Under the pieces are notes generated by a model, which saw nothing but the letters and a program-made list of their open reading frames with translations, searched no databases and was not told the DNA's origin. 64,000 nt of DNA, taken from an uncultured Acidobacteriota bacterium. Its GTDB lineage: Bacteria; Acidobacteriota; Vicinamibacteria; Vicinamibacterales; Fen-181. The stretch is taken from NCBI GenBank assembly GCA_963717945.1, contig CAVQXT010000003.1, positions 385,880 through 449,879 of the forward strand, written 5' to 3'. Position numbers and translations under genes: made by a program. Numbering within the stretch: position 1 is the stretch's first letter; each line of letters opens with the position of its first letter. Below are positions 13,570-53,703 of this stretch, in pieces.

Positions 13570-15756
<2,187 letters not shown>

Positions 15757-33186: not shown

Positions 33187-34424
33187 CTCGATCCCTCCTT
33201 CTCTGCGCGGCGCGCCGGCGTCAGCGGTCCTGCCCCGGCCGGGGGGGCCGCGATCGCCCACGCGAGGCCGAACGCCACGCCGCCAAGGGCCAGCATCGCT
33301 ACCGCGGTGTAGCCCCAGAGGCTGGCGGCCCAGCCGGCCGCGGCGGCCCCGGCCACGCCCGCCACGGCCGTCGCCGCGTTGAAAATGCCGAGCCCAGCGC
33401 CCTTGCCGACCGGAGACAGCTCCGCCGCCATCGCCGTCCCCGCGACGCTCAACGGCGACCACGCCAGCACGACGACGATGAAGCAGCCGAGCGCGAGGCT
33501 GTCGCGATCGATCAGTCCGGGCGTGTGCCCCAGCACCGCCAGCGCCGCGAAGGCCGCGAGCCGCACCGACAGTCCGGCCCGCAGAACGCGGAGCGGCCCC
33601 CGTTCCTCGGCCCAACGCCCGGCCGGCGAGTAGAGGAGCAGCCCGAGCGTGGCCGCCAGGGCGAAGGCGGTGGACGAGCGGGCGGGCGTCACGCCAAAGC
33701 CCTGCCTCATCAGCACGGGGTAGAGCGCGAAGACCGCGGATGCGCCTCCGAACGAGACCAGCCACAGGAGCGTGAATCCGCCGAACGGCGAGCGCAGCGC
33801 CGAGCGCATCGCGGACAGCGCGCCCGCGTCCGGGTAGTGGAACAGGCGCTGGGGCGAGAGGAGCGACGTCTCGCACTGTCGGACCGGGTGCAGCAGGACG
33901 GGAGCAGGCGAGGCGGACGCCTTCGGCGTCTCGGTCGAGAACCATCCCTGGACGGCGGCTACGGCGGCAATCAGCGATCCCACCGCGAGCCCGGCGAGCG
34001 CGTGCGCGAGGCCGAACACGCCGGCGAGCAGCAGCCCGGCGACCTGGCCGCCCCCGTAGAAGGTCTGCAGCCAGCCGATCCGCCCGTCCCACTCCGACTC
34101 GGGATGGACCTCCACCACGAACAGGTTCGCCACCGTCGCGCTGGCGGCCGCGGCGACGCCGAGGCCGAGGGCGAGCGCCAGCCGCGCGGCCGGCGCGTCC
34201 AGCACGGCGAACAGCGCGACTCCGCCCGAGAGAACCAGGAGGCCGCCCGAGAGCAGGAAGCGATGCAGGCGATAGCGGTCGGCCAGGGTGCCCCATACCG
34301 GGGCGCTCAGCCCGCCCAGGCTGAAGGCGGCCATCACCAGGCCGACCTGGCCGGGGTTTCCGCCGCCGCCGGCCACGAGCGGCAGGGCAATCGGGAGCAG
34401 GCCGGCCACGACCGCGCCCTGCAT
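33183..34424 (-). CDS. MFS transporter
   Basis: 413 aa with about 12 hydrophobic segments and the MFS loop motif GTLADRYRLHRF. It is the first gene of the sugar operon. Confidence 0.85.
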   Translation of the reverse strand: MQGAVVAGLLPIALPLVAGGGGNPGQVGLVMAAFSLGGLSAPVWGTLADRYRLHRFLLSGGLLVLSGGVALFAVLDAPAARLALALGLGVAAAASATVANLFVVEVHPESEWDGRIGWLQTFYGGGQVAGLLLAGVFGLAHALAGLAVGSLIAAVAAVQGWFSTETPKASASPAPVLLHPVRQCETSLLSPQRLFHYPDAGALSAMRSALRSPFGGFTLLWLVSFGGASAVFALYPVLMRQGFGVTPARSSTAFALAATLGLLLYSPAGRWAEERGPLRVLRAGLSVRLAAFAALAVLGHTPGLIDRDSLALGCFIVVVLAWSPLSVAGTAMAAELSPVGKGAGLGIFNAATAVAGVAGAAAAGWAASLWGYTAVAMLALGGVAFGLAWAIAAPPAGAGPLTPARRAEKEGSR

Positions 34425-34509
34425 GGCGTAGGCGGCGTACCACGGCTCGATGAGAGAGGTCGACGTATGAATTTAGTGTAAACGAGTCATCGGAACTGAC
34501 GATGAGGAA

Positions 34510-36621: not shown

Positions 36622-36709
36622 GGCATAAGCATAGCCGTACTCTGTTATCGTATCCTTCGATCCGGCGCGCCAAGGTTGTCGTCCCCGCTTCTTCCTGGTG
36701 GAGGTGCCC

Positions 36710-38344
36710 GTGTCCGACGCGTGGCTCGAGATCAATGAGGGATCGGGACCGCACCGCGTGCCGATCGAGAAGGACGTCTTCACCGTCGGGCGCCGGGCTG
36801 GCAACGACCTGAAGCTGAGCGCCGCCGACATCTCCCGCGAGCACGCCGAGATCGTGCGCGACGGCGAGGGCTTCCTCATCCGCGATCGGCAGTCGAGGTT
36901 CGGGACCTTCGTCAACGCGACCCGGGTGACCGAGCAGGTCCTGAAACACGGCGACGTCGTCCGGCTCGGCCAGGGCGGCGGCATGGAGATGGTCTTCTTC
37001 TGCGAGCCGGTGGCGCCGCTGCGCGCGTCGAGCGGAACGCCGGCCGAGCGCACGATCACCTCTGCCGGCGGCGACCTGCACCAGGTGGCCGCGCTGCTCG
37101 AAGGGCTCCGCGCCCTCGGCTCGGCGCGGCTGCTCGACGACGTGCTGGCGCTGGTCATCGACTCGGCCATCGACCTGAGCGGCGCCGAGCGAGGATTCAT
37201 CATGCTCGCCGACGGCGAGGGCCGGCTGGAGTTCAAGCTGGCGCGCGGCCGCGGCCGCCTGACCCTGCCGGGGCTGACCTTCGAGACCAGCCGCAAGATC
37301 CCGGAAGAGGTCTTCCAGACCGGCACGACCCGCGTGGAGCTCGACCTGCTCGACGGCGGCGTGGCGGGCGCCCACGCGAAGACGATCGCCATCGGCATCC
37401 GGCACGTGTTCTGCGTGCCGCTGCGCCTGGTGCGCTACGTGGACAAAGAGGACAGCCTGTCGGAGCCGCGGCGGATCGGCGTGCTCTACCTCGACAGCCG
37501 CGAGCGCGGGACGCTCGCCTCGAGGGCGATCCACGGCGGCCTCGAGACGCTGGCCACCGAGGCCGCCGTCGCCATCGAGAACGCCAGGCTCTACCGCGAG
37601 GCGGTGGAGAAGGCGAAGATGGAGCAGGAGATGCGGATCGCGGCCGAGATCCAGCAGGCCCTGCTGCCGCCGCCCGAGTGGTCGGCGGCCCATTTCGAGG
37701 CGGTCGGCCGGAGCGTGCCGTGCCGCGGGATCGGCGGCGACTTCTTCGAGTACCTGACGATGGCCGACGGGTCGGCCGGCTTCGTGGTGGCCGACGTGTC
37801 GGGCAAGGGGGCGCCGGCGGCGCTGCTGACGGCGGTCACGCAGGGGGCGCTGGCGACGCAGACCTCCTTCGGCGGCGGGCCGGCGGACGCGCTCGCGCGC
37901 GTCAACCAGGTCCTGATCCGCCGCGCCACCGGGTCGCGCTTCGTCACGCTGTTCTTCGCCGCGCTGTCGGAGGACGGCCGCCTCACCTGCTGCAATGCCG
38001 GGCACAACCCGCCCATCCTCGTCTCCGGGTCCACGGTGCGCCGGCTGGAGACGGGCGGTCTCATCTGCGGGCTGTTCGAGCACGCGACCTACCAGGAAGA
38101 GACGATCCAGCTGCAGCCGGGCGACGTGCTGCTCATTTTCAGCGACGGCATCTCGGAGGCGATGAACGCCGCCGGCGACGAGTTCGGCGACGATCGCATC
38201 GTCAGCTGCCTGCAGCAGCACGCCCGCGCGAGCGTCAACGAGGTGCTCGAGTGCCTCGTGCAGACGGTCAAGTCGTTCGCGTCCGGCACCGTGCAGAGCG
38301 ACGACATTACGGCCGTCGTCGTTCGCTACCGCGGCACACCGTAG
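36710..38344 (+). CDS. FHA-GAF-PP2C (SpoIIE-type) serine phosphatase
   Basis: - **FHA:** FTVGRRAGNDLKLSAADISREHAEIV...RFGTFVN.
- **GAF:** central region.
- **PP2C:** EIQQALLPP...GGDFFEY...VADVSGKGAPAALLTA...SDGISEA.
- GGAGGTG precedes the GTG at 36710. Alternative GTG codons lie at 36698 and 36704. Confidence 0.88.
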   Translation: MSDAWLEINEGSGPHRVPIEKDVFTVGRRAGNDLKLSAADISREHAEIVRDGEGFLIRDRQSRFGTFVNATRVTEQVLKHGDVVRLGQGGGMEMVFFCEPVAPLRASSGTPAERTITSAGGDLHQVAALLEGLRALGSARLLDDVLALVIDSAIDLSGAERGFIMLADGEGRLEFKLARGRGRLTLPGLTFETSRKIPEEVFQTGTTRVELDLLDGGVAGAHAKTIAIGIRHVFCVPLRLVRYVDKEDSLSEPRRIGVLYLDSRERGTLASRAIHGGLETLATEAAVAIENARLYREAVEKAKMEQEMRIAAEIQQALLPPPEWSAAHFEAVGRSVPCRGIGGDFFEYLTMADGSAGFVVADVSGKGAPAALLTAVTQGALATQTSFGGGPADALARVNQVLIRRATGSRFVTLFFAALSEDGRLTCCNAGHNPPILVSGSTVRRLETGGLICGLFEHATYQEETIQLQPGDVLLIFSDGISEAMNAAGDEFGDDRIVSCLQQHARASVNEVLECLVQTVKSFASGTVQSDDITAVVVRYRGTP

Positions 38345-38390: not shown

Positions 38391-39548
38391 TCATTGCTTG
38401 AGCCCCTTGGCGAGCGCTTCCAGATAGGCCGCCAGGTTCTTCATCTCGCCGGGCTCGAACTTGGGCCAGAACGAGGTGCGCTCGGCCATCGTGCGGTGCA
38501 TCGCGGGGGCGTGATTCCACATCGCCGAGGCCAGGCCGGCGCGGTCGGTGCGCCGGGCCAGGCCGGCCAGGTTCGGCGCGCCGCCGCCGTCCTTGTGGCA
38601 CGACGCGCAGCCCTTCCTGTCGAACACCGCCGCCCCCGCCTTCGGGTCTCCCTCCTGCCCCACGTAGCCGAGGAAGTAGAGGTCGGCGATGAGGTCCGCC
38701 ATCTCCGTGCCGGTGAACTGCGGGAACCTGATCCCTTTCGCTCCCATCCGCGCGCTCATGGCGTAGCTGTGGTCCCACAGCAGCCCGGTGATCTCGGACG
38801 CGGTCTTCGAGAGCGTCGAGCGGGCGAGGTCCGGCGCCGACCGCCCGGGTCCGTCGTGACACGCGCCGCAGCCCTTGCTCCGGTAAACCGCCGCTCCCCT
38901 GGTCGGGTTCGGCAGCGGCTCCAGGACGACGTCGCGTCCCGGCCGCTGGCCCTCGGCGCGGATGAAGGCCTGGATGTCGGCCATGTCGTGCCCGGAGAAC
39001 TCCGGGATCGGCGTGCCGGTGCGCACCTGCGCCTGCTGCATGCGCGGGCCGGCGTTCCACATCGCCTGCGCCAGCGCCGTTGACGACGTGAAGGCGCTGA
39101 AGCGATCGAGCGCGCCGCCCATGTCCCCGCCGCGCTTTCCGAGCGAGTGGCAGCTGACGCACTGCAGCCGGGCGTAGGTCTGCGCGCCCCGCGCCGCGTC
39201 GCCCGGCTCGTCGAACAGGCGCAGGTAGTAGAGGTAGCTCAGGATGTCGGCCATCTCCGCCGGGTCGAGCGTCGGCCACGCCTCGCCGAGCCGCGACACC
39301 CGGTCGATCATCTGCGGCGTGTGGTTCCAGAAATCGCCGACCAGCTCGTAGAACGACTTGCCGGCGACCGCCACGCTCATCTCGGGGCCGAGGTGCCCGC
39401 CGTGGCCCCAGACCGAGTGGCACTCGGTGCACCGCTTCTCCTCGAAGCGCTGCCGGCCGAGGAACGGGTTGCCCTCCTGGGCCGACGCCGGGCCGGCCGC
39501 GAGGGCCGCCACGACGGCGGCCGCCGCCGCGAAGGCTCGTGTGCTCAT
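38391..39548 (-). CDS. tetraheme c-type cytochrome (four class I-like domains), periplasmic
   Basis: Signal peptide MSTRAFAAAAAVVAALAAGPASA. Four CxxCH motifs (CTECH, CVSCH, CGACH, CASCH) are spaced about 100 aa apart, and each is followed by a W(N/D)Hxxx M-type segment. The start overlaps the NrfD-like stop as ATGA. Confidence 0.9.
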   Translation of the reverse strand: MSTRAFAAAAAVVAALAAGPASAQEGNPFLGRQRFEEKRCTECHSVWGHGGHLGPEMSVAVAGKSFYELVGDFWNHTPQMIDRVSRLGEAWPTLDPAEMADILSYLYYLRLFDEPGDAARGAQTYARLQCVSCHSLGKRGGDMGGALDRFSAFTSSTALAQAMWNAGPRMQQAQVRTGTPIPEFSGHDMADIQAFIRAEGQRPGRDVVLEPLPNPTRGAAVYRSKGCGACHDGPGRSAPDLARSTLSKTASEITGLLWDHSYAMSARMGAKGIRFPQFTGTEMADLIADLYFLGYVGQEGDPKAGAAVFDRKGCASCHKDGGGAPNLAGLARRTDRAGLASAMWNHAPAMHRTMAERTSFWPKFEPGEMKNLAAYLEALAKGLKQ

Positions 39549-40897
39549 CGCTCCACCGCCGCCATATCGTCGGGAAGGTACGACGCCACGCGCTCGGAGA
39601 CCTCGTGCACCGACAGGTCGCGGCCCTCCTGGATCTCCCAGATCGAGATGATCGGGAAGAACTTGGTCGCCACCATGTAGACCAGGACGAACCCGGCCAG
39701 CGTGCCCGCCATGATCGACAGCTCGACCCACGACGGCATGTAGTGCACCGACGCCGCCTGCAGCCGCGGGTGGAGCGAAGTCGGGACGACGATGTTGAAC
39801 CGCTCCAGCCACATGCCGATGACGACCGCGATCGACGCGACGACGCACCCGGTCACGTTGCGCGTCTTCCGGCGCGCCATCAGCGCGAAGGGGATGAAGA
39901 AACAGCAGGCCACCATCGTCCAGAACGGGATCGCGAACTCCCCGGTCAGCTTGGCGTAGAGCGTGGCCAGCTCCGACGCCTCGCCGCCGTACCAGACGGT
40001 GAGGTGCTCGGCGAAGGTGAAGTAGAACCACAGCACCGTCGTCACCAGCAGCAGCAGCCCCATGTTGTTGAAGTGCACGTCTTTGAAGTACGCCTCGAGG
40101 CGGTAGACGCGCCGCAGGATCGCCATCGCGATGATGAGCGCCGCGATCCCCGAGAAGATGGCGCCGACGACGAAGTAGGGGCCGAAGATCGCGCTGTGCC
40201 ACATCGGCTTCAGCGTCAGCGCGAAGATCCAGCCGATGACGGTGTGGACCGAGACCGCGACCGGGATCACCGCCACGGCGAGAATCCCGATGATCCGCTC
40301 GAGCGTCGCGCGGGCGGCCGGCGTGTCGTGGTAGCCGATCGCGAGGAACGAGTACAGCGCGCGGGGGCGGAGCCCGAGGTCGCGGATGCGCGCGAGGTCC
40401 GGGATCATCGGCACGTACAGGTAGACGGAGCTGGCCGTGAAGTAGAGCGTGATGCTCAGAACGTCCCAGAGGAGGGGCGAGAACGGCTGCGAGTGGAGGA
40501 AGATGTTCAGCACGCGGTCCGGCCGGCCCAGGTCGAGGATCGGCTGCACGGCGCCGAAGCCGATGACGAGCACCGTGATGAACTCGGCCGACCGCGTGAT
40601 CGACCGCCGCCACTCCGCGTTCGCCACGCGGAGGATCGCCGAGATGAGCGTGCCGGCGTGCGAGATGCCGATGAAGAACACGAAGCAGATGATGTAGATG
40701 CCCCAGTACTCGGGCGTGTTCAGGCCGGTCGCGCCCAGGCCGTCGCGCAGCTGGTAGGCGTAGGCGAAGGCGCCCCACAGGGCGACGGCGGCCATCAGCG
40801 CGGCCCAGCGCCAGAACACCTTCGTCGTGCGCACCAGCGGCATGAGCAGCACGCGCTCGTCCTGGGGCAGCTTCGAGACGATTTCAAGATCGGTCAC
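39545..40897 (-). CDS. NrfD/PsrC-family integral membrane quinone-interacting subunit
   Basis: 450 aa with a GTG start and about 10 TM helices. The N-terminal region FWRWAALMAAVALWGAFAYAYQLRDGLGATGLNTPEYWGIYIICFVFFIGISHAGTLISAILR is typical of NrfD/PsrC/ActC. Confidence 0.88.
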   Translation of the reverse strand: MTDLEIVSKLPQDERVLLMPLVRTTKVFWRWAALMAAVALWGAFAYAYQLRDGLGATGLNTPEYWGIYIICFVFFIGISHAGTLISAILRVANAEWRRSITRSAEFITVLVIGFGAVQPILDLGRPDRVLNIFLHSQPFSPLLWDVLSITLYFTASSVYLYVPMIPDLARIRDLGLRPRALYSFLAIGYHDTPAARATLERIIGILAVAVIPVAVSVHTVIGWIFALTLKPMWHSAIFGPYFVVGAIFSGIAALIIAMAILRRVYRLEAYFKDVHFNNMGLLLLVTTVLWFYFTFAEHLTVWYGGEASELATLYAKLTGEFAIPFWTMVACCFFIPFALMARRKTRNVTGCVVASIAVVIGMWLERFNIVVPTSLHPRLQAASVHYMPSWVELSIMAGTLAGFVLVYMVATKFFPIISIWEIQEGRDLSVHEVSERVASYLPDDMAAVER

Positions 40898-40901
40898 AGC
40901 A

Positions 40902-41585
40902 CTATTCCCGTCGTGACAGGTAGTAGACCTTCGGCTCGGTGCCCAGCCCCTCCTGGAGGCGGAAGGCGCGCGGGTCGCGCGCCAGTTCCGCGACCCGGTG
41001 CGCCGGGTCGTCGAGATTGCCGAACACGATCGCCCCGGTCGGGCAGCTGTCGGCGCAGGCGGTCGTGAAGTCCTGCTCGCGCAGCGGGCGTTTCTCGACC
41101 CGCGCGTTCTCCCGCGCCTTCTGCAGCCGGTGGCTGCAGAACGTGCACTTCTCGATGACGCCCACCGGCCGCACCGACACGTCGGGGTTCAGCCCCGGCA
41201 GCGTCGACTCGGGGTGATTCGGCCGGTGCCAGTTGAAGTACTTGACGGTGTACGGGCAGGCGTTGGCGCAGTACCGGCAGCCGATGCACCGGGCGTAGAT
41301 CTGGTTGACGATCCCCTCGCGGTCGATCGACGTCGCCTGCACCGGGCACACCAGCGTGCAGGGCGGCCGGTCGCAGTGCATGCACGGCTGCGGCACGAAC
41401 CGCGTCCTGAGGTCCGGCCACTCGCCCTCGATGTCCACGCGCACCTGCATCCACGAGATCGTGCGGTGCTCGGCGGCGGCCTGCGACCCCCCCACGGCGA
41501 CGTTGTTCTCGGACCGGCAGGCCACCTCGCACGCCTGGCAGCCGTTGCACTTGTCGAGGTCGATGACCATTCCCCAGCGGGCCAT
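40902..41585 (-). CDS. 4Fe-4S ferredoxin-type iron-sulfur subunit (PsrB/NrfC/DmsB-like)
   Basis: MARWGMVIDLDKCNGCQACEVAC..., CMHCDRPPCTLVCP, CIGCRYCANACP, CTFC and CADSCP give four Cys clusters. Confidence 0.92.
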   Translation of the reverse strand: MARWGMVIDLDKCNGCQACEVACRSENNVAVGGSQAAAEHRTISWMQVRVDIEGEWPDLRTRFVPQPCMHCDRPPCTLVCPVQATSIDREGIVNQIYARCIGCRYCANACPYTVKYFNWHRPNHPESTLPGLNPDVSVRPVGVIEKCTFCSHRLQKARENARVEKRPLREQDFTTACADSCPTGAIVFGNLDDPAHRVAELARDPRAFRLQEGLGTEPKVYYLSRRE

Positions 41586-41595
41586 GCCAGTCTCC

Positions 41596-43992
41596 TCAGA
41601 GCCGGATCACTCGCACTCGCGTCGACGGCCAGTCCGGCAGGCCGCTCACCGGATCGACCGCCCGGCCCACCGCCGAGAGCGGGTTGGCGCCGTTCGGCTC
41701 GCCCCACCCCTCGTCGTTGCTCGGGGCGCCCTGAGCCTCTGGAAGGGCGACGCGAGAGTGCAGGCCGTACGGCACGCTGACGACGCCCGGCTGCGCGCCG
41801 AGCGTCACCCGGACGGTCGCCTCGAACCGGCCGCGGCTCGATTCGACCCGCACGCGCTGGCCCGACTCCAGCCCCGCACTGCGCGCCGTCTCGGGGCCAA
41901 TCTCGATCCACGTCTCCCACGCGCTGCCGTTGAGCGCGCCGAGGTGCTCGAGCAGCCACGGCATCAGGGGCGTCCCGCCGGACGCGAGCGTCATAACGCG
42001 GAACGGGACCAGCTGCAGGGGAAATTCGCGGAGCCCGTTGTCCTGCGCCTGCGGCGACGCGTCGATCGGGAGGAACCCCTCCGCCAGGGCGCGGCCGGAC
42101 TTCGCCAGGCGCTCCCTGGCCTCGACGGGGAACATCCAGACGCGGCCGTCGGGGAGCTGCGACCGGCCGGCGCCGTCCTCGTAATCGACCAGCGGATCGA
42201 ACCAGCCGCCGGACTCGACGATGGTCTGCCAGAACTCCTCGGGCTTCTGCCCGTGGGGAAGCCACCAGCCGCGCCCCTCGACCTCGCCCAGCTCGCGCTG
42301 CCTGAATCGATCGACGAACGCGCTCCCCCGTCCGGCGCTCGCCAGCGAGAGGCCGCGCTCGTGGACCAGGTCCTCGACCGACTTCCACCGGGCCCACGCC
42401 GCCGCGCTCCCGCCCATCCGCGACGCGAGGCCGAGGATGACGTCGCCGGTGGCGCGCGTGTTCACCAGCGGCTTGACGACGGGACGGACCACGCCCCACA
42501 CCGGCGAGGGCACGGCGGCCGGCGCCACGGCGTCCTGCCAGCGTTCGAGATACGTGTGGTCGGGCAGGATCAGGTGGGCCGATCGCGCGCTCTCGTCGAA
42601 GAAGGGAGAGAACGACACGACCAGCGGCACCCGCGCGAGCGCCTGGCGGGCCGCCTCCGGATCGGGCAGCGAGGCCACCGGGTTCGCGTGGTAGAGGAAC
42701 AGGACCTGCGTCGACCCGGCGGCGTGGCCCTCGCCCGATGGCCAGGTCGTCGCCGTGAGCGGCGCGCTCGCGAGATCGATCTCGCCCGGCGCCCTGCGCT
42801 CGGCCGGGCCCGGCAGCGGCGGCATCGGGCCCTGCACCAGCAGCCCGCCCGGCCGGCCGAGCCGGCCGGTCAGCGTGTTGAGCGCGTGAATGGCCAGCGC
42901 GTCCGACAGGCCCCCGGTGCGCCACGCGACCGCCTGGTCCCACACCGCCACGGCGCGCCGCGCGCCGCCGAACTGCTTGGCGAGCGCGGTGAGCGTCGCC
43001 ACCGGCACGCCCGTGCGCGCCGACACCTCGTCCGGGCGGCCGTGCCTCAAGACCAGCGTCCGGAAGCCGACGTGCGTCACGCCGTCCGCGCCGGTCCAGT
43101 CGTCCCAGCCCGCCACCTGCCGGGCGACCTGGTCGGGGTCGTAGAGCCCTTCCTTGACGATGACGTAGGCAAGGCCCAGCGCGAGCGCGCCGAACGTCCC
43201 CGGCCGGACCGCGACGAACTGGTGCGCGCCGACCGCGGTTCGAGACAGCCGGACATCCACCTGCACCCAGCGCGGCGACCGGCCGGGAGGTTCGGCGTCG
43301 CGGGCGCGCGCGGCCTGGAGCGGCGACCACCAGGCGTCCGACAGCGCCGCGCCGAAGGAGAGCACGAAATCGGCGCCGGCCAGATCGAACGCCGGGGCCG
43401 TCGCGATCCCCTGGCACAGGCGCATGAGGTCGGCGGACCCGTCCCGGTAATCGTCCACCGACACGCGCGTCGTCCCCATGACGCCGCAGAATCCCGCGAG
43501 GAGTTCGCCCATGACGCCGGAGACGTCCCCGACCATCCACTCGACCGGCGTCGCGCCCCCGGGCCGATACGCGGACTCGAGCGCCGACGCGACGCGATCG
43601 AGCGCCGCGTCCCATCCGATCGGCTTGAACTGGTCGGACCCGGGCGGCCCGACGCGCACCAGCGGCCCCTTCAGCCTCGCGGGGTGATAGAGCAGCTGGA
43701 GTCCCGCGCGCCCCTTGGGGCACAGCCCGCCCTGGCTCACCGGGTGGAGCGGGTTGCCGTCGATGCGGACCGGCCGGCCGTCGATGAGGCGGACCCTGAT
43801 CCCGCAGTGCGCGGGGCACAGCAGGCACGTGGAGGCGACAAACGTCTCGTCGTTCGGCGCCCAGTCCGGTCCCACGTGAGGCGAGGCCAGCGGGAACTGA
43901 TGCGAGAGGGCGCCGAGGCCGAAGCCGATGCCGGCACCCGCCGCGCCGACCAGGAAGCTCCGTCGGGAAATGGCCACCTCGCGCCCCCTCAC
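41596..43992 (-). CDS. Tat-exported molybdopterin-oxidoreductase-family catalytic-type subunit (PsrA/ActB1/QrcB-like)
   Basis: The GTG at 43992 overlaps the upstream stop as GTGA. It has a twin-arginine signal (AISRRSFLVGAAGAGIGFG) and an intact FS0 motif CLLCPAHC-x27-C. The rest is MopB-like, with a C-terminal beta-barrel domain (RVRVESSRGRFEATVRVT). An alternative GTG lies at 43977. Confidence 0.88.
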   Translation of the reverse strand: MRGREVAISRRSFLVGAAGAGIGFGLGALSHQFPLASPHVGPDWAPNDETFVASTCLLCPAHCGIRVRLIDGRPVRIDGNPLHPVSQGGLCPKGRAGLQLLYHPARLKGPLVRVGPPGSDQFKPIGWDAALDRVASALESAYRPGGATPVEWMVGDVSGVMGELLAGFCGVMGTTRVSVDDYRDGSADLMRLCQGIATAPAFDLAGADFVLSFGAALSDAWWSPLQAARARDAEPPGRSPRWVQVDVRLSRTAVGAHQFVAVRPGTFGALALGLAYVIVKEGLYDPDQVARQVAGWDDWTGADGVTHVGFRTLVLRHGRPDEVSARTGVPVATLTALAKQFGGARRAVAVWDQAVAWRTGGLSDALAIHALNTLTGRLGRPGGLLVQGPMPPLPGPAERRAPGEIDLASAPLTATTWPSGEGHAAGSTQVLFLYHANPVASLPDPEAARQALARVPLVVSFSPFFDESARSAHLILPDHTYLERWQDAVAPAAVPSPVWGVVRPVVKPLVNTRATGDVILGLASRMGGSAAAWARWKSVEDLVHERGLSLASAGRGSAFVDRFRQRELGEVEGRGWWLPHGQKPEEFWQTIVESGGWFDPLVDYEDGAGRSQLPDGRVWMFPVEARERLAKSGRALAEGFLPIDASPQAQDNGLREFPLQLVPFRVMTLASGGTPLMPWLLEHLGALNGSAWETWIEIGPETARSAGLESGQRVRVESSRGRFEATVRVTLGAQPGVVSVPYGLHSRVALPEAQGAPSNDEGWGEPNGANPLSAVGRAVDPVSGLPDWPSTRVRVIRL

Positions 43993-44525
43993 CTGTGACA
44001 GGCGATGCAGTTGGCCGGCACGTTCCGCCGCTCGTGGCAGTCGGTGCACGTCTTCATGACGATCTGCACCAGCGGCCGCGGCGGCGGGGCCGTCGTGTCG
44101 GCGATGGCGCCGTGGCAGGTCGCGCAGGGCAGGCCGGCCACGGTGACGTGGCGCCGGTGGGAGTAATACACGTGGTCGGGCAGCCGGAACGTCTTCCGGA
44201 ACACCGGCGGCGTCGGGCTCGCGGCGAGCGTGATGAGCTTCCGCTCCTCGGGCGACTTGGTCATCGGCTGCTGGTGACACCCGACGCAGAGCGCGAGGTC
44301 GGGCAGGCCCGAGTGCTGGTGATCGGCGTAGTACTGGTGGCAGGTCGAGCAGTCGAGCCCGGCGTCCTTGACGTGCTTCCGATGGTTGAACTGGATCGGC
44401 TGGACGACGGCGCCGTTCGGGTCGAACGCGGCACGTCCGGCGGCGAAGCCCGCGACCGCCATCAGCACGGTGAACGCGCCGAGGGCGAGCCTCCTGGTTG
44501 GACCGAGCTTCTCATCGACGTTCAC
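43989..44525 (-). CDS. membrane-anchored pentaheme c-type cytochrome (cytochrome c3/c7, ActA/QrcA-like)
   Basis: 178 aa with a GTG start and AGGAG upstream. The N-terminal TM anchor is LALGAFTVLMAVAGFAAG. Five CxxCH motifs are present: CSTCH, CVGCH, CATCH, CTDCH, CIACH. Confidence 0.9.
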   Translation of the reverse strand: MNVDEKLGPTRRLALGAFTVLMAVAGFAAGRAAFDPNGAVVQPIQFNHRKHVKDAGLDCSTCHQYYADHQHSGLPDLALCVGCHQQPMTKSPEERKLITLAASPTPPVFRKTFRLPDHVYYSHRRHVTVAGLPCATCHGAIADTTAPPPRPLVQIVMKTCTDCHERRNVPANCIACHR

Positions 44526-44580: not shown

Positions 44581-45069
44581 TCAGGCCGATTCGGCCTGGC
44601 TTCCCGGGTCGAGCGTCCGCTGCAGCTCCCGTGCCCAGAGCGCCTGGAACATCGTGAGACGGCTGACCATCAGTTCCGAGATCCCCGTGCGAACCACGCG
44701 CTCGATCACCGGGTCGGCCGCAAAGAGCTTTTCGAGGTCGAGCCGCCCGAACGCCAGGATCTCGGCGGGCGCCGCCGCGCGTGCCGACAGGGTGAAGCGG
44801 AACGGCCGGACGAGCGCAGACCAGCCGACCGTCTTGCCCGGTCCGACCGCTTCGACGGTGATGTCCTTGACGACGCCTCCGACGTTGATCGGCAGGCACA
44901 GGTCCACCAGACCGCGGACGACGAGGCTGATGTACTGCGCGCTGTCGCCGAGCAGGAAGAGGTAGTCGCCGCTCCCGAGCGACCGCTTCCGCGCGATGGC
45001 GTCCAGGCGCATCAGCTTCGCGGCATCGAGACCGTCGAACAGCTCGGCCGCGCGGAGGGACTCCAGCAT
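44581..45069 (-). CDS. stand-alone cyclic-nucleotide-binding (cNMP/Crp-like effector) domain protein
   Basis: 162 aa. ELFDGLDAAKLMRLDAIARKRSLGSGDYLFLLGDSAQYISLVVRGLV...VGWSALV fits the cNMP-binding beta-roll. There is no C-terminal HTH. Confidence 0.8.
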   Translation of the reverse strand: MLESLRAAELFDGLDAAKLMRLDAIARKRSLGSGDYLFLLGDSAQYISLVVRGLVDLCLPINVGGVVKDITVEAVGPGKTVGWSALVRPFRFTLSARAAAPAEILAFGRLDLEKLFAADPVIERVVRTGISELMVSRLTMFQALWARELQRTLDPGSQAESA

Positions 45070-45125
45070 GCGACCTTCCTTGGAAAACCGTTGTAGGGCG
45101 GGTCTTCAGACCCGCCGCCGCGCGC

Positions 45126-45189
45126 CGGCCCTGTCCGCCTTCGCCCGGCTACGGCGGATCCGCCGTAGCGCTTCGCGCGGAGGCGGAAA
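45126..45189 (-). repeat. 64-bp structured intergenic repeat, copy 1 (identical to 54773-54836 in inverted orientation)
   Basis: The reverse complement of 45126-45189 equals 54773-54836 at 64 of 64 positions by my alignment, and similarity extends about 9 nt further. The centre is the perfect 22-bp palindrome GCTACGGCGGATCCGCCGTAGC (45148-45169). Confidence 0.85.
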
Positions 45190-45284
45190 GGGCCGGCCTA
45201 CGTACGAATTCGTACTGGAGACCGACGGCCGCCCAGCCGGCCCCAGAATGGCTGAGCGGCCCAATCGGCCCGGGGGCTCCAGCG

Positions 45285-45626
45285 TCAGTGCGCGTGAAGA
45301 GACGTGCCGACCCGGCGGTAGAGGTTGTCCACCGATGGCTGATGGACGAACTGCGCCACCACCGCCTGCTCGAGCCGGACGTGGTGTTCGAGACGGCTGA
45401 CCATCGCCTCGTTGAAGGCCGAAGCGGCCGGCGTGACCGCCCCGTCGGCGGGCGCGAAGAAACCGGGGACGGCGACGATGGCGGAAGCTCTGGCCGCCGC
45501 GTCTCCCAGCCGGCCCTTGGCCTGCCGCGCGCGTTCGGCCTCGCTGCTCTGATAGCCCATCGCGAGCATCAGGACCATCCCTCCGAACAGGACCGCCACG
45601 ACGACAACGACCAGAGCTGATTCCAT
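45285..45626 (-). CDS. small single-pass membrane protein (113 aa)
   Basis: ATG at 45626 with GGGAGG upstream. MESALVVVVVAVLFGGMVLMLAMGY forms a TM helix and the rest is soluble. It sits directly behind a sigma-54 promoter. Confidence 0.65.
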   Translation of the reverse strand: MESALVVVVVAVLFGGMVLMLAMGYQSSEAERARQAKGRLGDAAARASAIVAVPGFFAPADGAVTPAASAFNEAMVSRLEHHVRLEQAVVAQFVHQPSVDNLYRRVGTSLHAH

Positions 45627-45801: not shown

Positions 45802-45817
45802 CTGACAGGAGTGTCAG
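45802..45817. promoter_or_regulatory. candidate enhancer (UAS) palindrome CTGACAG-GA-GTGTCAG
   Basis: TGACA-N4-TGTCA inverted repeat about 135 nt upstream of the sigma-54 promoter at 45669, overlapping the regulator stop codon. A near-identical site lies at 49246-49261. Confidence 0.5.
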
Positions 45818-47223
45818 GATCTCCGGTTCGCCGGGCGATCGGCGGCCGGGCGGCGCGCCGGGGCTCCCCCGCGTTGACGCTCGAGCAGCCGGTAGAAGGT
45901 CCGCTCCGACATGCCGAGCGCGTGAGCGGCCTTCGCCCGGTTCCCGCCCACCTTGGTGAGCACCCACTGGATGTGGCGGCGCTGCATCTCGCGCAGCGAC
46001 GGGATCTCCTCCCCGTCGGGCCGCGCGAGCGTCGGGCCCTCGGGCCGCAGGCTCACCGGCAGGTCCTCGACGTGGATGACGTCGCCGTCGCAGAGCACCA
46101 CGCTCTGCTCGATCACGTGGATCAGCTCGCGCACGTTGCCCGGCCAGCCGTGCCGCTGCAGCAACTCGAGCGCGTCGTCGCCCACCCGCTTGGCGCAGGA
46201 GAAGCGGCGGTTGAACCGCGCGATGAAGTGATCGACCAGGCAGGGGATGTCCTCGGGCCGGGTCCTGAGCGGCGGGATGGTCAGCGTGAAGGTGGCCAGC
46301 CGGTAATAGAGATCCTCGCGGAAATGACCGCGGGCGGTCGCCTGCGTGAGGTCCCGGTTGGTGGCCGCCACGACGCGCACGTCGACGGCGATCTCGCGCG
46401 TGCCGCCGAGGCGGCGGAAGCGGCCCGTCTCGAGCACGCGGAGCAGCTTGGCCTGGGCCTCGGGGCTGGTGTCGCCCACCTCGTCGAGGAAGATCGTCCC
46501 GCCGCTGGCCACCTCGAACAGCCCGTGCTTCAGGCGATCGGCGCCGGTGAACGCCCCCTTCTCGTGGCCGAAGACCTCGGTCTGGAACAGCTCGTCGTGG
46601 AGCGCCGCGCAGTTGACCGCGACAAACGGCGCCTCGCGCCGCCCGCTCTGCGTGTGGAGCAGCGTGGCGACCAGCTCCTTGCCGACGCCGGTTTCGCCCA
46701 GGATGAGCGTGGTCGAATCGGTGCGGGCGATCCGTTCGACCGCGTCGAGCAGCTTGCGGTTGGCGGCGCTCGCGCCGACGAACTCGACGCCGCGGTCGGG
46801 CACGGCGTACCCGTCTTCGAGCACGCGCTGCCGGGTGAGGAGCCGCACGTGCTCGTGCGTCTTCTGGATCGTCATCTCCAGCTTGGCGATCGGGCACGGC
46901 TTCTCGAGGTAGTCGTGGGCGCCGACGCGGATCGCCCGGACCGCCGTGTCGATCGTCCCGTGGCCGGTCAGGACGACGATGCCCGCCGCGACCGACCGGC
47001 GGCGCAGCTCCTCGAGCACGTCGAGGCCGTCCATGTCGGGCAGGCGCAGGTCGAGGAGGATCACGTCCACGTCCGCGCTCGCGGCCGGGTCGAGCGCCTC
47101 CTGGCCGGACGCGCGCGTCTCGACGGCGTAGCCCCGGCGCGCCAGCTCCGCGCCCATGACGCGCCGGAACGCGGCGTCGTCGTCGACGAGCAGCACGCGG
47201 ATCGCGGTGTCGGGACTGGTCAC
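45814..47223 (-). CDS. sigma-54-dependent response regulator (receiver-AAA+-Fis HTH, NtrC family)
   Basis: The GTG at 47223 overlaps the kinase stop as GTGA.
- **Receiver:** RVLLVDDD...DLRLPDMDG.
- **Walker A:** GETGVGKE.
- **GAFTGA loop:** EKGAFTGA.
- **Other AAA+ motifs:** FLDEVG and GNVRELIH.
- **C-terminal HTH:** GNRAKAAHALGMSERTFYRLL. Confidence 0.93.
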   Translation of the reverse strand: MTSPDTAIRVLLVDDDAAFRRVMGAELARRGYAVETRASGQEALDPAASADVDVILLDLRLPDMDGLDVLEELRRRSVAAGIVVLTGHGTIDTAVRAIRVGAHDYLEKPCPIAKLEMTIQKTHEHVRLLTRQRVLEDGYAVPDRGVEFVGASAANRKLLDAVERIARTDSTTLILGETGVGKELVATLLHTQSGRREAPFVAVNCAALHDELFQTEVFGHEKGAFTGADRLKHGLFEVASGGTIFLDEVGDTSPEAQAKLLRVLETGRFRRLGGTREIAVDVRVVAATNRDLTQATARGHFREDLYYRLATFTLTIPPLRTRPEDIPCLVDHFIARFNRRFSCAKRVGDDALELLQRHGWPGNVRELIHVIEQSVVLCDGDVIHVEDLPVSLRPEGPTLARPDGEEIPSLREMQRRHIQWVLTKVGGNRAKAAHALGMSERTFYRLLERQRGGAPARRPAADRPANRRS

Positions 47224-49115
47224 AAGGCCTCCGCGCCCGAGAGGGGGAAGACGACCTCGATGCACGAGCCGCGCCCGACGGCGCTCTCGACCAGCCGGAC
47301 GTCGCCGCCGAAGCGGCGCATGAACCGGCGCGAGAGGAAGAGGCCGAGGCCGGTGCCGTCCGGCTTCTCGGTCCGGAACGGCTCGAACAGGTGTCGCTGG
47401 GCCTCCGGCGGAATGCCGCAGCCGTTGTCGCGCACCTGCAGGCGCACCTGCTCGCCGACGTCGACGCGCACGGCCACCCGCCCGCCGCGCCCGCCGCACG
47501 ACTCGATGGCGTTGACGAGCAGGTTCAGCACCACGTGCTGCACGACCTCGGTGTTGGCCGAGACGATGGGGATCGGGCCGCTCCGGTCGCGGACCAGCTC
47601 GACCTCCGCCGCGCGCGCGGCCGGGGCGGCGAGCGAGAGGACGCCGTCGACGACTTCGCCGAGATCGATCGGCTCGGTGGCCGGCGGGATGCCGCGGGCG
47701 AAACGCAGGAACTGCCGGGTGATCGTGCGGCACCGCATCACCTGGTCGCGAATCACCGAGGCGCTGTCGCGGATCGCCTCGAGCGTGGCGGCGTCGGGCG
47801 GGCCGTCGGCCGGGCCCGGGAGCTGGTCGAGGATCCCCTCGGCGCAGGTGAGCGTCGTGGCGAGCGGCGTGTTGACCTCGTGCGACAGGCCGGACGCCAG
47901 GATGCCCAGCGAGGACAGGCGCTCGAACTCGGCGAGATGCTCCTCACCCCGGACGCGATCGGTGATGTCGCGCCACGCCTCGACCACCTGCCCGACCGAC
48001 CCGTCCTCGGCGTAGACCGGAGACGCGTAGATCTCGTAGATGCGCTCGTCGCCGCCGTCGGACGCGGGCATGCGGTAGGTGGCCTGCGCGAGGCGCCCCG
48101 TGGACAGGCACCGCGCCGTCGGGCACTCGGGGTCGTCGCCGCAGGGCAGGACGTGGCCCGTCACGCGGCGGCACTCCTGCCCGCGCAGCGCGTCGGGATG
48201 CGCGCCGAGCCACGTGGCGATCGACCGGTTGGCCGCGACCACCTTGAAGTCCCGCCCGAGCACGATCAGGCCGTCGTCGAGGCCGTTGAGGACGCCGGAG
48301 AGCTGCTGCTCCCGGCGCTTGATCTCCTCGACCAGGCGCGAGGTCGCGTCGGCCATGGCGTTGAAGTCGGTGGCCAGCGACGCGATCGCGTCGCCGCCCG
48401 AGGTGTCGGCCCGCTCCTCGAGCGCGCCGCCGGCGATGGCGCGCGCGGTCCGCGTGAGCGCCGAGAGCCGCGAGAGGACGACCCGGCGCAGATGCCACCC
48501 CAGGCCGCCGAGCATGACCAGCGCCACGATGCCCGACCCGGCGCCGAGGCGCCAGGCGTCGCTGCGGAACTGCGCCTGCACCTGCGAGAGCGACACGTCG
48601 AGCACCATCATGCCGTTCCAGCGCGTGGCGGGGTCGTGGCAGCGGTGGCATTCCGGGCGGTTCTCGATCGGCAGCACGGTCCTGAGGACGCCGACGCCGT
48701 TCTCCTGGAAGGTGACCCAGCGCTTGCGGTCGGCCGGGCTCTCCGCGTGGCAGACCAGGCAGGTGGGCGACGACCTCGACGTGCGGACACCGACCTCGGC
48801 CGGCCGGCTCGACAGCTTGATGATCCCGTCGTGGTCGACGATCATCGCGCGCAGGACCTCGGGCTCGTGGCCGACGTCCCGGAGAATCCCGCCGATGAGC
48901 CCGGTGTCCCGCGCCAGCATGTCGTGCCGGAGGGCGGTCTCGAGGAGGCGGTTCTCGAGCTCGGCGGCGCCGCGGCGCGCGGCCACGGCGTGGTCGTACT
49001 GAAGGGCAGAGAGCAGGTAGAGGCCGCCGGCCAGCGGACCGAGCAGGAGCAGGCTCACCCCCAGCGCAATCCGGGCCGTGAGCCGCTCGACGTGGGGGAC
49101 TCGCAGGCGTCTCAT
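47220..49115 (-). CDS. sensor histidine kinase: periplasmic di-CxxCH domain, HAMP, Cys-rich PAS, HisKA, HATPase
   Basis: 631 aa.
- **Membrane topology:** two TM helices flank a periplasmic domain of about 160 aa.
- **Periplasmic domain:** contains CLVCH and CHRCH.
- **HAMP:** AIASLATDFNAMAD.
- **PAS:** carries ECRRVTGHVLPCGDDPECPTARC.
- **H-box:** SGLSHEVNTPL.
- **N/G boxes:** NLLVNAIES, DNGCGI, GTGLGL. Confidence 0.92.
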   Translation of the reverse strand: MRRLRVPHVERLTARIALGVSLLLLGPLAGGLYLLSALQYDHAVAARRGAAELENRLLETALRHDMLARDTGLIGGILRDVGHEPEVLRAMIVDHDGIIKLSSRPAEVGVRTSRSSPTCLVCHAESPADRKRWVTFQENGVGVLRTVLPIENRPECHRCHDPATRWNGMMVLDVSLSQVQAQFRSDAWRLGAGSGIVALVMLGGLGWHLRRVVLSRLSALTRTARAIAGGALEERADTSGGDAIASLATDFNAMADATSRLVEEIKRREQQLSGVLNGLDDGLIVLGRDFKVVAANRSIATWLGAHPDALRGQECRRVTGHVLPCGDDPECPTARCLSTGRLAQATYRMPASDGGDERIYEIYASPVYAEDGSVGQVVEAWRDITDRVRGEEHLAEFERLSSLGILASGLSHEVNTPLATTLTCAEGILDQLPGPADGPPDAATLEAIRDSASVIRDQVMRCRTITRQFLRFARGIPPATEPIDLGEVVDGVLSLAAPAARAAEVELVRDRSGPIPIVSANTEVVQHVVLNLLVNAIESCGGRGGRVAVRVDVGEQVRLQVRDNGCGIPPEAQRHLFEPFRTEKPDGTGLGLFLSRRFMRRFGGDVRLVESAVGRGSCIEVVFPLSGAEAL

Positions 49116-49514: not shown

Positions 49515-50492
49515 ATGGTGCGCTTGTCCCGGTTGGGAAGCCTGTCGGCATTCATGCTCATGTGGGCCGCCGCGGCCGCCGCGCAGCAGGGCGGGGCGGT
49601 CAAGGCCGCCCTGGCGGCTGACGAGGTCTGCACCGCGTGCCACAACGAGACGTGGGCGAAGCCGATCCTCGCGATCTACCAGACGCCACACGGCAACAGG
49701 GCCGACCCGCGAACGCCGGGCTGTCGGACCTGTCACGGCCCGAGCGAGGGCCACCTGAGCGACTTCAACACGTCACCCGACGTCGTGTTCGGCGCGGCGT
49801 CGAAGCGGCTGTCGCCGGCCGCCAAGCGCAACGCCTCGTGCCTCGCGTGCCACGACTCGAAGGTGCTGGCGCGGACCAACTGGATCGGCAGCCAGCACGA
49901 GAGCCATGGCGTGGCCTGCACCAGCTGCCACAACATCCACGCGCCCGATCAGAAAGTCCTCGTCAGGGCCACACAGGCGGAGGTCTGCTACGCCTGTCAC
50001 AAGGCCCAGCGCGCGCAGGTCCGCCGCATCTCGGCCCACCCGCTCGCGGTGACCGGCATCGGCAGCCCGCCGAAGATGGTCTGCTCGGACTGCCACAACC
50101 CTCACGGCTCGACCGGCCCCCAGCTTCTCGTCAAGAACACGGTGAACGAGACCTGCTACACGTGCCACGCCGAGAAGCGCGGCCCGTTCCTCTGGGAGCA
50201 CAGCCCGGTCGTGGACAGCTGCGTGAACTGCCACACGCCGCACGGCTCGACCAACGCGGCGCTGCTGAAGGTGCGCGCGCCCTTCCTGTGCCAGGAGTGT
50301 CACAGCGGGGATCACGCCGCGCAGATCAACAGCGGCGCCAACCTCGGCACCGGGGCCGTGACCACGGTCAACGGCGTGCAGCAGCCGGCCGCCGCCGCGC
50401 CGCGGGCGCAGCTCGCCGCCCGCGCCTGCCTGAACTGCCACGTGCTCATTCACGGGTCGAATCACCCGGCGGGGGCCAAGTTCCAGCGCTGA
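49515..50492 (+). CDS. periplasmic decaheme c-type cytochrome, MtrA/DmsE/MtoA/PioA family
   Basis: 325 aa with a signal peptide. Exactly ten CxxCH motifs are present: CTACH, CRTCH, CLACH, CTSCH, CYACH, CSDCH, CYTCH, CVNCH, CQECH, CLNCH. Both the spacing and the size are typical of MtrA-type cytochromes. Confidence 0.9.
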   Translation: MVRLSRLGSLSAFMLMWAAAAAAQQGGAVKAALAADEVCTACHNETWAKPILAIYQTPHGNRADPRTPGCRTCHGPSEGHLSDFNTSPDVVFGAASKRLSPAAKRNASCLACHDSKVLARTNWIGSQHESHGVACTSCHNIHAPDQKVLVRATQAEVCYACHKAQRAQVRRISAHPLAVTGIGSPPKMVCSDCHNPHGSTGPQLLVKNTVNETCYTCHAEKRGPFLWEHSPVVDSCVNCHTPHGSTNAALLKVRAPFLCQECHSGDHAAQINSGANLGTGAVTTVNGVQQPAAAAPRAQLAARACLNCHVLIHGSNHPAGAKFQR

Positions 50493-53313: not shown

Positions 53314-53364
53314 TGAGCCCTGAGCCCTGAGCCGCCCTGGCCAGAGCCTCGAGCCTCGGGCCTA
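53314..53364. repeat. heptamer arrays (TGAGCCC x2, TGAGCCG ... GAGCCTC x2, GGGCCTA)
   Basis: Read directly. The arrays lie between convergent genes and run into the cytochrome c stop codon. Confidence 0.8.
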
Positions 53365-53703
53365 CTTCGCCGCCTTGAGCGTCTGCAGGTAGGCCACCAC
53401 CGCGTCGATGTCGCCCGGCTGCCACGCCACCTTCGGCATCTTGATCTTCTCGTTGGGGAATTCCTTCAGGGGGTCGGCCAGGATCGACTTGATCTTGGCG
53501 GCGTCGAGGCGGTCGGTGACGCCGTCGAGCGGCTTGCCGATCTTGCCGCCCTTGCCCGCGACAAGGTGACACATCGAGCAGTGGTTCTTGACCGCCAGTT
53601 CCTGGCCCTTGGCCACGGCCTTGGCGTCCTGGGCTGCCGCGTAGCCGGACAGCGCCACGGTACACACGACGGCGAGAAGCGTGAAGGAAGTACGTTGTGC
53701 CAT
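53362..53703 (-). CDS. monoheme class I c-type cytochrome, periplasmic
   Basis: 113 aa. Signal peptide MAQRTSFTLLAVVCTVALSGYAAA, a single CSMCH, and a distal Met candidate in KIKMPK. Confidence 0.9.
   Translation of the reverse strand: MAQRTSFTLLAVVCTVALSGYAAAQDAKAVAKGQELAVKNHCSMCHLVAGKGGKIGKPLDGVTDRLDAAKIKSILADPLKEFPNEKIKMPKVAWQPGDIDAVVAYLQTLKAAK

Follow-up and report, generated by a model that had tools for sequence, protein, structure and literature searches.

We analysed a 64,000-nt stretch of DNA from an uncultured member of the Vicinamibacterales (Acidobacteriota), taken from contig CAVQXT010000003.1 of assembly GCA_963717945.1 (positions 385,880 to 449,879 of the forward strand, G+C content ~70%) and referred to below, at its full length, as the window. 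The subject is a row of five minus-strand genes, named A to E here, in which an initial annotation made from the letters alone had seen an electron-transfer complex resembling alternative complex III (ACIII) and Qrc, with a MopB-like subunit that might still be a catalytic molybdoenzyme. All five of the open reading frames (ORFs) that it had described were present, and are given here from the upstream end:

43989-44525, minus strand: gene A, membrane-anchored pentaheme cytochrome c (ActA/QrcA-like), 178 aa, five CXXCH motifs, hydrophobic N-terminal helix
41596-43992, minus strand: gene B, MopB-like protein with a twin-arginine translocation (Tat) motif (SRRSFL), 798 aa, Cys56-x2-Cys59-x3-Cys63-x27-Cys91
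40902-41585, minus strand: gene C, four-cluster iron-sulfur (FeS) subunit (ActB2/QrcC-like), 227 aa, 16 Cys in four ferredoxin-type groups, without a signal peptide
39545-40897, minus strand: gene D, integral membrane protein of the NrfD family, ActC-like quinone/proton subunit, 450 aa
38391-39548, minus strand: gene E, periplasmic tetraheme cytochrome, 385 aa, with a signal peptide and four class I domains, four CXXCH motifs

A five-gene module in several phyla

Pfam searches assigned A to cytochrome c7/c3, C to 4Fe-4S dicluster, D to NrfD and E to Cytochrom_C and Cytochrome_CBB3, and found all three MopB domains (Molybdop_Fe4S4, Molybdopterin and Molydop_binding) in B. Three of the gene junctions had been proposed to be translationally coupled. 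The ATGA overlap of D and E (39545-39548) and the 4-nt gap between C and D (40898-40901) were both seen in the sequence, and a gap of 10 nt separates B from C. For A and B, the GTGA letters at 43989-43992 are present, but in the gene call on the source contig (ENA ERZ25039489 contig_38815, 748 kb) B begins at the following GTG (43977), with an 11-nt gap and no overlap as the result; coupling of A and B through GTGA is possible but not certain. The same gene call shortens D to 378 aa. We favour the 450-aa start because the N-terminus is conserved and because the orthologous contigs (loci L085-L087) call a protein of 450 aa.

To examine the distribution of the gene set, we searched 80 related loci, some of which are interrupted by contig ends, with the five proteins (tblastn). 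The order A-B-C-D-E was found in more than 40 of these loci, from Acidobacteriota, Methylomirabilota/NC10, Rokubacteria, Nitrospinota, Planctomycetia (Planctomycetota), Binatia, Thermodesulfobacteriota and Syntrophobacteraceae, and the heme counts were fixed, at five in A and four in E, in every full-length orthologue examined. As both the order and the heme counts hold across these orthologues, the arrangement is not due to chance, and this constancy, together with the at least 287 clusters at 50% identity that match E at E<=1e-30, establishes the five-gene set as a real, old and widespread module. The nearest relatives of B (57-89% identity) came exclusively from metagenome-assembled genomes of Acidobacteriota, mostly Vicinamibacterales with some Polarisedimenticolia, and none from a cultured strain. 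When compared with loci from outside the Acidobacteriota, B was 33-40% identical, C 54-63% and D 49-61%, such that B is the least conserved subunit across phyla, the opposite of the pattern that a catalytic subunit should show. The family is not singled out in a published survey of the NrfD family.

Subunit E consists of four domains of ~90 aa, each with an invariant CXXCH and with an invariant Met ~36-40 residues downstream in the motif W-N-H-x-P-x-M, a pattern that suggests His/Met ligation of the class I type for its hemes. A PDB sequence search with E returned generic class I cytochromes only and no match to ActE. Similarly, the AlphaFold2 (AF2) model of E (pLDDT 79) gave no whole-chain match to PDB folds, and its matches were confined to individual class I domains or to dihemes (for example, Kustd1711, cytochrome c4 and SoxAX). 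The initial annotation was right to place a four-domain class I cytochrome where ACIII has the monoheme ActE, although a four-heme ActE-like subunit had already been reported from an MBNT15 genome (PMC9386147); we found no further paper on such a subunit in the literature. We also noted a relative of E with double its length (P0242, 768 aa) and four matched stretches, which is probably a duplicated, octaheme version.

Subunits A, C and D in relation to ACIII and Qrc

The kinship with ACIII and Qrc was borne out by PDB sequence searches, in which A, C and D matched ActA, the C-terminal half of ActB and ActC, respectively, much more strongly than any Psr or Arr subunit, and by NCBIfam, where the top models for A, B and C were QrcA, QrcB and QrcC. 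For A, the ActA matches spanned 2.8e-20 to 4.8e-16 (8k9e_A at 2.8e-20, 6f0k_A at 4e-17). C matched the C-terminal half of ActB (6f0k_B, 6.8e-58) ahead of ArrB (2.7e-37) and PsrB, while D matched ActC at 9.6e-68 (6f0k_C) and 4.7e-62 (6btm_C), down to 3.6e-52, with no match to PsrC. The initial annotation had proposed phylogenies of the NrfD subunit as a means of placing the complex. In the neighbour-joining tree that we built, with ActC, ActF and ArxC references from annotated plasmids, the D family formed its own clade, sister to canonical ActC.

All 16 Cys of C are invariant. The third group reads CIGCRYC, a full CxxCxxCxxxCP motif as in ArxB, versus CVGTRYC in canonical ActB, and a CxxTxxC-type third group is the signature of the quinol-proximal [3Fe-4S] cluster (FeS1) in the ACIII structure. 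The all-Cys third group implies that the family would carry four [4Fe-4S] clusters in addition to FS0, the cluster of B. For D, residues named in the R. marinus ActC structure paper were mapped through a phmmer alignment. The cytoplasmic half-channel is kept at 14 of 14 positions (His80, Thr83, Ser86, Arg97, Arg102, Glu105, Thr108, Tyr152, Ser156, Asp167, Arg172, Asp173, His218 and Glu421 in window numbering) and the periplasmic half-channel at five of six, the exception being a Thr in place of Tyr323. Residues Trp82, Ile86, Phe89, Pro136, Leu166 and Asp169 of the ActC quinol pocket are likewise kept. Two others of this pocket are not, as His139 corresponds to Asp122 and Asp253 to Ile224 in D, and they are replaced (by Asp and by Ile or Val, respectively) in every family member aligned.

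Given these matches, the module might be taken for an ordinary ACIII, whose structures (R. marinus 6F0K, F. johnsoniae 6BTM and Roseiflexus 6LOD) likewise combine an anchored pentaheme ActA, periplasmic MopB-like and four-cluster FeS modules, and, in ActC, a 10-transmembrane-helix-type NrfD subunit with conserved half-channel residues. The best solved relatives of A, C and D are ActA, ActB and ActC, the proton-channel residues of ActC are kept, and neither a split ActB1/ActB2 nor the loss of ActF and ActG falls outside the accepted variation of ACIII. However, when ActD, ActE and ActF of two reference clusters were searched for by tblastn, none of the three turned up in the window, nor in the A-B-C-D-E loci outside the separate sets described next, which supports the initial annotation in its statement that ActD and ActF are missing, and cox genes were also absent from both; the canonical reference clusters carry ActD, ActE and ActF plus coxB and ctaD. 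In two loci, a separate canonical ActD-ActF-ActE set lies immediately upstream of A-B-C-D-E (L049, 638-3037; L054, 31-2395), which indicates that the two complexes coexist in those genomes as paralogues. Further differences from ACIII are that B and C are separate genes, that FS0 is kept in B and absent from ActB, that the proximal cluster is all-Cys, that His139 and Asp253 are replaced family-wide, that a tetraheme stands in place of monoheme ActE, that ActG and an adjoining oxidase are missing, and that D has its own clade beside ActC. Canonical ACIII membership was rejected on the missing ActD, ActE and ActF, the missing [3Fe-4S] signature and the coexistence with a canonical set, and we consider it unlikely that the module is an ordinary ACIII.

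Several of these traits, taken singly, are not new. Neutrophilic Fe(II) oxidisers have actAB1B2CDEF with CX2CX3CX27C in ActB1 (Kato et al. 2015, PMC4643136), and Nitrospirales have actAB1B2CDE without ActF or ActG (PMC12342949). Judged from their descriptions, both share with our module the split ActB and a proposed link to extracellular iron redox chemistry but, unlike A-B-C-D-E, keep ActD and a monoheme ActE (and, in the Fe oxidisers, ActF). "Cluster 4" of the MBNT15 bacterium SHF-111 has ActABCD with the four-heme ActE-like subunit, lies distant from oxidase genes and was proposed to serve dissimilatory iron metabolism (PMC9386147); as described, it resembles our module except that it has ActD. 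The split ActB1/ActB2 with FS0, the loss of ActF and the four-heme ActE-like subunit have thus each been noted in genome papers. The separate B and C genes, which the initial annotation had listed among the departures from both known complexes, therefore set the module apart from neither, as ActB1/ActB2 are known in ACIII and as QrcB and QrcC are already separate proteins.

The module also has the architecture of QrcABCD of Desulfobacterota, with four core subunits in the same order, separate MopB-like and FeS proteins, and a MopB-like subunit that is probably free of Mo. It might then be a true Qrc that acts in sulfate respiration as a cytochrome c3:menaquinone oxidoreductase and has one cytochrome gene more. 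The top NCBIfam models agree with this, as do some JGI records in which homologues are labelled "menaquinone reductase, molybdopterin-binding-like subunit". Yet all four subunits scored below the curated QrcA-D cut-offs (A 87.9 versus 180, B 289.2 versus 440, C 301.8 versus 400, D 44.6 versus 570), and D, which scored 110 with DsrP, is ActC-like rather than a QrcD. The literature describes QrcB as free of redox cofactors, in contrast to the FS0 of B, and the fifth, tetraheme gene has no place in Qrc. The hosts are Vicinamibacterales, Rokubacteria and others and not sulfate-reducing Desulfobacterota, and no sulfate-reduction genes (dsr, apr or sat) were found within the 64-kb window. True Qrc membership was rejected on the NCBIfam scores and the identity of D, and this reading is very improbable.

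The molybdenum site of subunit B

We aligned 78 relatives of B and then a subset of these together with one bona fide ArxA and two ActB proteins of the canonical, fused form (Paludisphaera and Methylobacterium). Cys56, Cys59, Cys63 and Cys91 of FS0 were retained in nearly all of the 78, whereas the two ActB proteins had none of the four, in agreement with the initial annotation, which had singled out the FS0 motif as a difference from ActB. The Mo-ligand motif GHSS(I/M)C(A/S)DGS was found in ArxA and in those relatives that have only B, C and D and no pentaheme gene, with the exception of L043 (GSMSVEGT). In the window clade, the ligand loop is VDDYRDGS and the Cys column is occupied by a nearly invariant Tyr (Tyr182); by phmmer, the ligand Cys of ArrA, PsrA and NapA also aligns within a Cys-free stretch of B (RVSVDDYRD). 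The Rokubacteria-type loop is IRVRC(L/F)PPE, with a Cys shifted by two positions, and other clades vary. Within the family, presence of the pentaheme gene thus tracks loss of the canonical ligand Cys. The initial annotation had offered another candidate ligand, Cys193 in DLMRLCQG. This Cys is present in the window but is not at a conserved column in an alignment of 64 sequences of the clade, and it was ruled out as a Mo ligand, being Ser in many close orthologues (L007, L012, L014, L016, L017, L019 and L020) and Met or Thr in other clades.

As a proxy for binding of the molybdopterin guanine dinucleotide cofactor, we used the 168 columns that are constant in ArxA and eight Cys-bearing relatives. 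The share of these columns that is kept was as follows:

window clade: 57-64%; the window itself 105 of 168 (62%)
other A-B-C-D-E clades: 73-88%
small group lacking the ligand Cys, with a multiheme A: 85-95%
canonical ActB: 34-37%

The invariant positions lost in the window clade include Asn176, Asp267, Arg353, Asn360, Asp473, Arg502, 669-676 and Asp712. The PGTD motif has become PGTF/Y/W (Phe267 in the window), the domain-IV motif HAEGRxxN (669-676) reads LASGGxxL in the window B, and the Asn of GSPN, RG, NG and the Asp of AD(x)LP are replaced as well. The small group comprises L048, L050, L069, L073 and L076 (Nitrospiria, Nitrospinae, Glassbacteria and Poribacteria; for example L069:3702-6513), in which a Leu or Gly stands at the ligand Cys (GHSSILSDG) and a multiheme cytochrome precedes B, with seven CXXCH motifs in L048, L069 and L073. 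These proteins may be ligand-less and yet bind the pterin.

The features that B shares with Psr, Arr and Arx enzymes allow for a different view, in which B would still be an active enzyme with a Mo- or W-bis(pyranopterin guanine dinucleotide) cofactor (Mo/W-bisPGD) and the complex would be a reductase or oxidase of the Psr/Ttr/Arr type, decorated with hemes, for a substrate in the periplasm. From Mo, electrons would run by way of FS0 and FS1-4 to the quinone, with the cytochromes as additional points of entry or exit. Like PsrABC (2VPZ), ArrAB (6CZ7) and ArxABC, the module has a Tat signal, FS0, the MopB fold, an all-Cys four-cluster subunit (with the proximal cluster as in ArxB) and an NrfD anchor. 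The Tat signal and the FS0 motif are intact, all three MopB Pfam domains are detected, the N-terminal half of B is nearest to ArrA (9.1e-35), PsrA and NapA in PDB sequence searches, with ActB aligning at residues 423-523 only, and the AF2 model of B (pLDDT 79, pTM 0.86) has the full MopB fold with TM-scores of 0.64-0.70 to NapA, ArrA and PsrA. Asp and Ser residues are also found close to the ligand loop (VSVDDYRDGS). The Mo site itself argues otherwise, given the Tyr at the ligand column, the unconserved Cys193 and the replaced PGTD, GSPN, RG, NG, AD(x)LP and HAEGRxxN residues. Moreover, the pentaheme gene goes with loss of the ligand Cys, and B evolves faster than C and D. The module also differs from the Psr, Arr and Arx enzymes in its two added cytochromes and its ActC-like D. 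A TorD-like chaperone, present in the Arx reference cluster, was not found within the 64-kb window, nor were moa or mob genes. On this evidence, the suggestion in the initial annotation that B might still be a catalytic molybdoenzyme is not supported, and we regard an active reductase or oxidase of this kind as quite improbable. From the alignments, the window clade has probably kept FS0 and lost Mo-bisPGD, with a slim chance that the cofactor is retained.

As the module lacks defining features of ACIII, of Qrc and of active complex iron-sulfur molybdoenzymes (CISM), we class it as a variant of the ACIII/Qrc type that is still uncharacterised, and not as a novel enzyme.

Regulation, porin-cytochrome neighbours and proposed function

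Upstream of gene A, the window contains the following features:

44581-45069, minus strand: protein with only a cyclic-nucleotide (cNMP)-binding domain (Pfam cNMP_binding), 162 aa, no DNA-binding domain, directly upstream of A
45285-45626, minus strand: small protein with one transmembrane segment (N-terminal helix), 113 aa, found by tblastn in 14 related loci, with a gene call in L084-L087
45656-45670, minus strand: candidate sigma54 -24/-12 element GGGCACGGGACTTGC, one mismatch to TGGCAC-N5-TTGC, before the small ORF
45814-47223, minus strand: NtrC-type sigma54-dependent response regulator (Pfam Response_reg, Sigma54_activat, HTH_8), adjoining the operon in many loci
47220-49115, minus strand: sensor histidine kinase (HAMP-PAS-HisKA-HATPase) with two CXXCH motifs (CLVCH, CHRCH) in its periplasmic domain, kept alongside the operon in many loci
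49515-50492, plus strand: MtrA/DmsE/PioA-type periplasmic decaheme cytochrome, 10 CXXCH motifs, TIGR03508 score 274.7 versus a cut-off of 192.2, divergent from the operon
50497-53238, plus strand: MtrB/PioB-type outer-membrane porin, Pfam MtrB_PioB 2.1e-114, TIGR03509 score 327.8 versus a cut-off of 240.05
53362-53703, minus strand: monoheme class I cytochrome c (Pfam Cytochrom_C) adjoining the porin, with homologues after MtrA/MtrB in L012 and L020

The unit of kinase, NtrC-type regulator, small ORF, cNMP gene and A-B-C-D-E is conserved in Acidobacteriota, in one Binatia locus and in others. The cNMP gene is kept upstream of A in Acidobacteriota loci, L040, L044 and L085-L087, and equivalent sigma54-like elements lie upstream of the operon in seven loci (L005, L008, L015, L017, L019, L021 and L040). 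A scan for sigma70 promoters and intrinsic terminators between 38000 and 49600 found nothing. The module is part of a conserved, putatively sigma54- and two-component-regulated unit, a point that is new here. The two CXXCH motifs, in a periplasmic domain with a weak Pfam match to Mcp40H-20_sensor, suggest that the kinase is a heme-c redox sensor. The cNMP protein and the 113-aa protein, the latter with no NCBIfam match, could be regulators, assembly factors or extra subunits. We also noted that, in the source copy of the locus (L084), coordinates agree with those of the window from E through the cNMP gene, and that those of the small ORF, regulator and kinase are offset by one base, which reflects either a 1-nt difference within ~45070-45285 or a quirk of the coordinates.

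Homologues of MtrA and MtrB are divergent from the module in the window, L003-L006, L015 and L085, follow E directly on the same strand in L011, L012 and L020, and are upstream of or adjacent to the module in Rokubacteria and Syntrophobacteraceae (L053, L063, L066, L072 and L075). PioAB homologues in Acidobacteria and Rokubacteria had been noted in earlier literature; that their adjacency to this module is recurrent, though not obligatory, is also new here.

Collectively, we assign a probability of roughly 0.6 to the reading that A to E form an electron-transfer complex of the ACIII/Qrc type that faces the periplasm and interacts with quinones, and not an active molybdoenzyme, its function most likely being that of a quinone:cytochrome c electron-transfer module. 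Gene content, cofactor motifs, homology, conservation and synteny are direct observations. For the loss of Mo, the path of electrons, the partner and the direction of transfer, we infer the following scheme. By analogy with CISM, ACIII and Qrc, B would be exported by the Tat system and would carry along C, which has no signal of its own. B would serve mainly as a scaffold that keeps the [4Fe-4S] cluster of FS0 and no longer binds Mo-bisPGD, and the four predicted [4Fe-4S] clusters of C would form a chain ending beside the quinone pocket of D, which is of the ActC type and keeps the proton half-channels. A, with five hemes and anchored, and E, with four putative His/Met hemes and soluble or docked, would link this FeS wire to redox partners in the periplasm. 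Quinones of the pool and c-type cytochromes would then exchange electrons through the complex, probably with uptake, release or translocation of protons through D. For the direction, we lean slightly towards quinol oxidation because E resembles a high-potential His/Met cytochrome. Expression would start from the sigma54 promoter under control of the adjacent NtrC-type regulator and the putative heme-c sensor kinase. Here, and likewise in several unrelated lineages, the neighbouring MtrA/PioB-type conduit with the monoheme cytochrome is the probable partner, in which case the module would take the inner-membrane role that CymA, bc1 or ACIII has in other extracellular electron-transfer chains.

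Several points weigh against this reading. The predicted fold of B is complete and nearest to NapA, ArrA and PsrA, not ActB, though it is silent on the cofactor. Arsenite oxidase is a MopB enzyme that works without a protein ligand to its metal, and other clades of the family, judged from their share of invariant residues (up to 88%), might include cofactor binders. In D, two of the three charged residues of the ActC quinol site are altered, such that the quinone chemistry may differ. A scan of the window for sigma54 elements with up to two mismatches gave no enrichment over shuffled sequences, and the candidates carry weight only because of their position and their recurrence in orthologues. 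Neither L086 nor L087 has MtrA or MtrB within 10 kb, by which an obligatory porin-cytochrome neighbourhood was ruled out. Finally, our literature search found no biochemical work on any member of the A-B-C-D-E family.

The loss of the Mo site appears graded across the family, from three-gene, Cys-bearing relatives through multiheme, Cys-less proteins (85-95% of invariant columns), the Rokubacteria/NC10 type (73-88%) and the Acidobacteriota (about 62%) to ActB (about 35%), and the R. marinus ActB1 contains no prosthetic groups according to the ACIII structure paper. We tentatively propose, as a possibility that we hold with less than even confidence, that the family is an evolutionary intermediate between Psr/Arr-type molybdoenzymes and the cofactor-less ACIII and Qrc, that FS0 acts as a fifth FeS station feeding E, and that, in Acidobacteriota, Rokubacteria and Syntrophobacteraceae, the module couples quinones at the inner membrane to PioAB/MtoAB-type electron conduits, a role so far unrecognised. 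If the main reading holds, a respiratory module that has gone unstudied would be common to uncultured soil and groundwater Vicinamibacterales, Polarisedimenticolia, Rokubacteria, NC10, Nitrospinota and Binatia, where current pipelines label it as "selenocysteine-containing dehydrogenase", Qrc or ACIII. Recognising B as probably not a molybdoenzyme would avoid false calls of polysulfide, thiosulfate or arsenate respiration from metagenomes, the recurrent linkage to PioAB/MtrAB would make the module a testable candidate for the inner-membrane step that is still missing in the extracellular electron exchange of these phyla, and the graded loss of the Mo site across clades would be material for the origin of ACIII and Qrc from molybdoenzymes.

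Elsewhere, the window encodes a catalase-peroxidase (13582-15756, plus strand), a fusion of a Ser/Thr kinase with a formylglycine-generating enzyme (FGE)-sulfatase-like domain (16514-19600, minus strand), an FHA-SpoIIE(PP2C) phosphatase whose gene is convergent with gene E (36698-38344, plus strand), and two extracytoplasmic function (ECF) sigma factors (15901-16485 and 27897-28481). Neither tat nor terminal oxidase genes were found within its 64 kb. At 32062-34443 (minus strand), the source annotation has a single 787-aa product that combines a zinc alcohol dehydrogenase domain with MFS_1. The window sequence has the major facilitator superfamily (MFS) ORF (33183-34424) and the dehydrogenase in different frames, which a long shadow ORF or a frameshift in high-GC sequence may explain.

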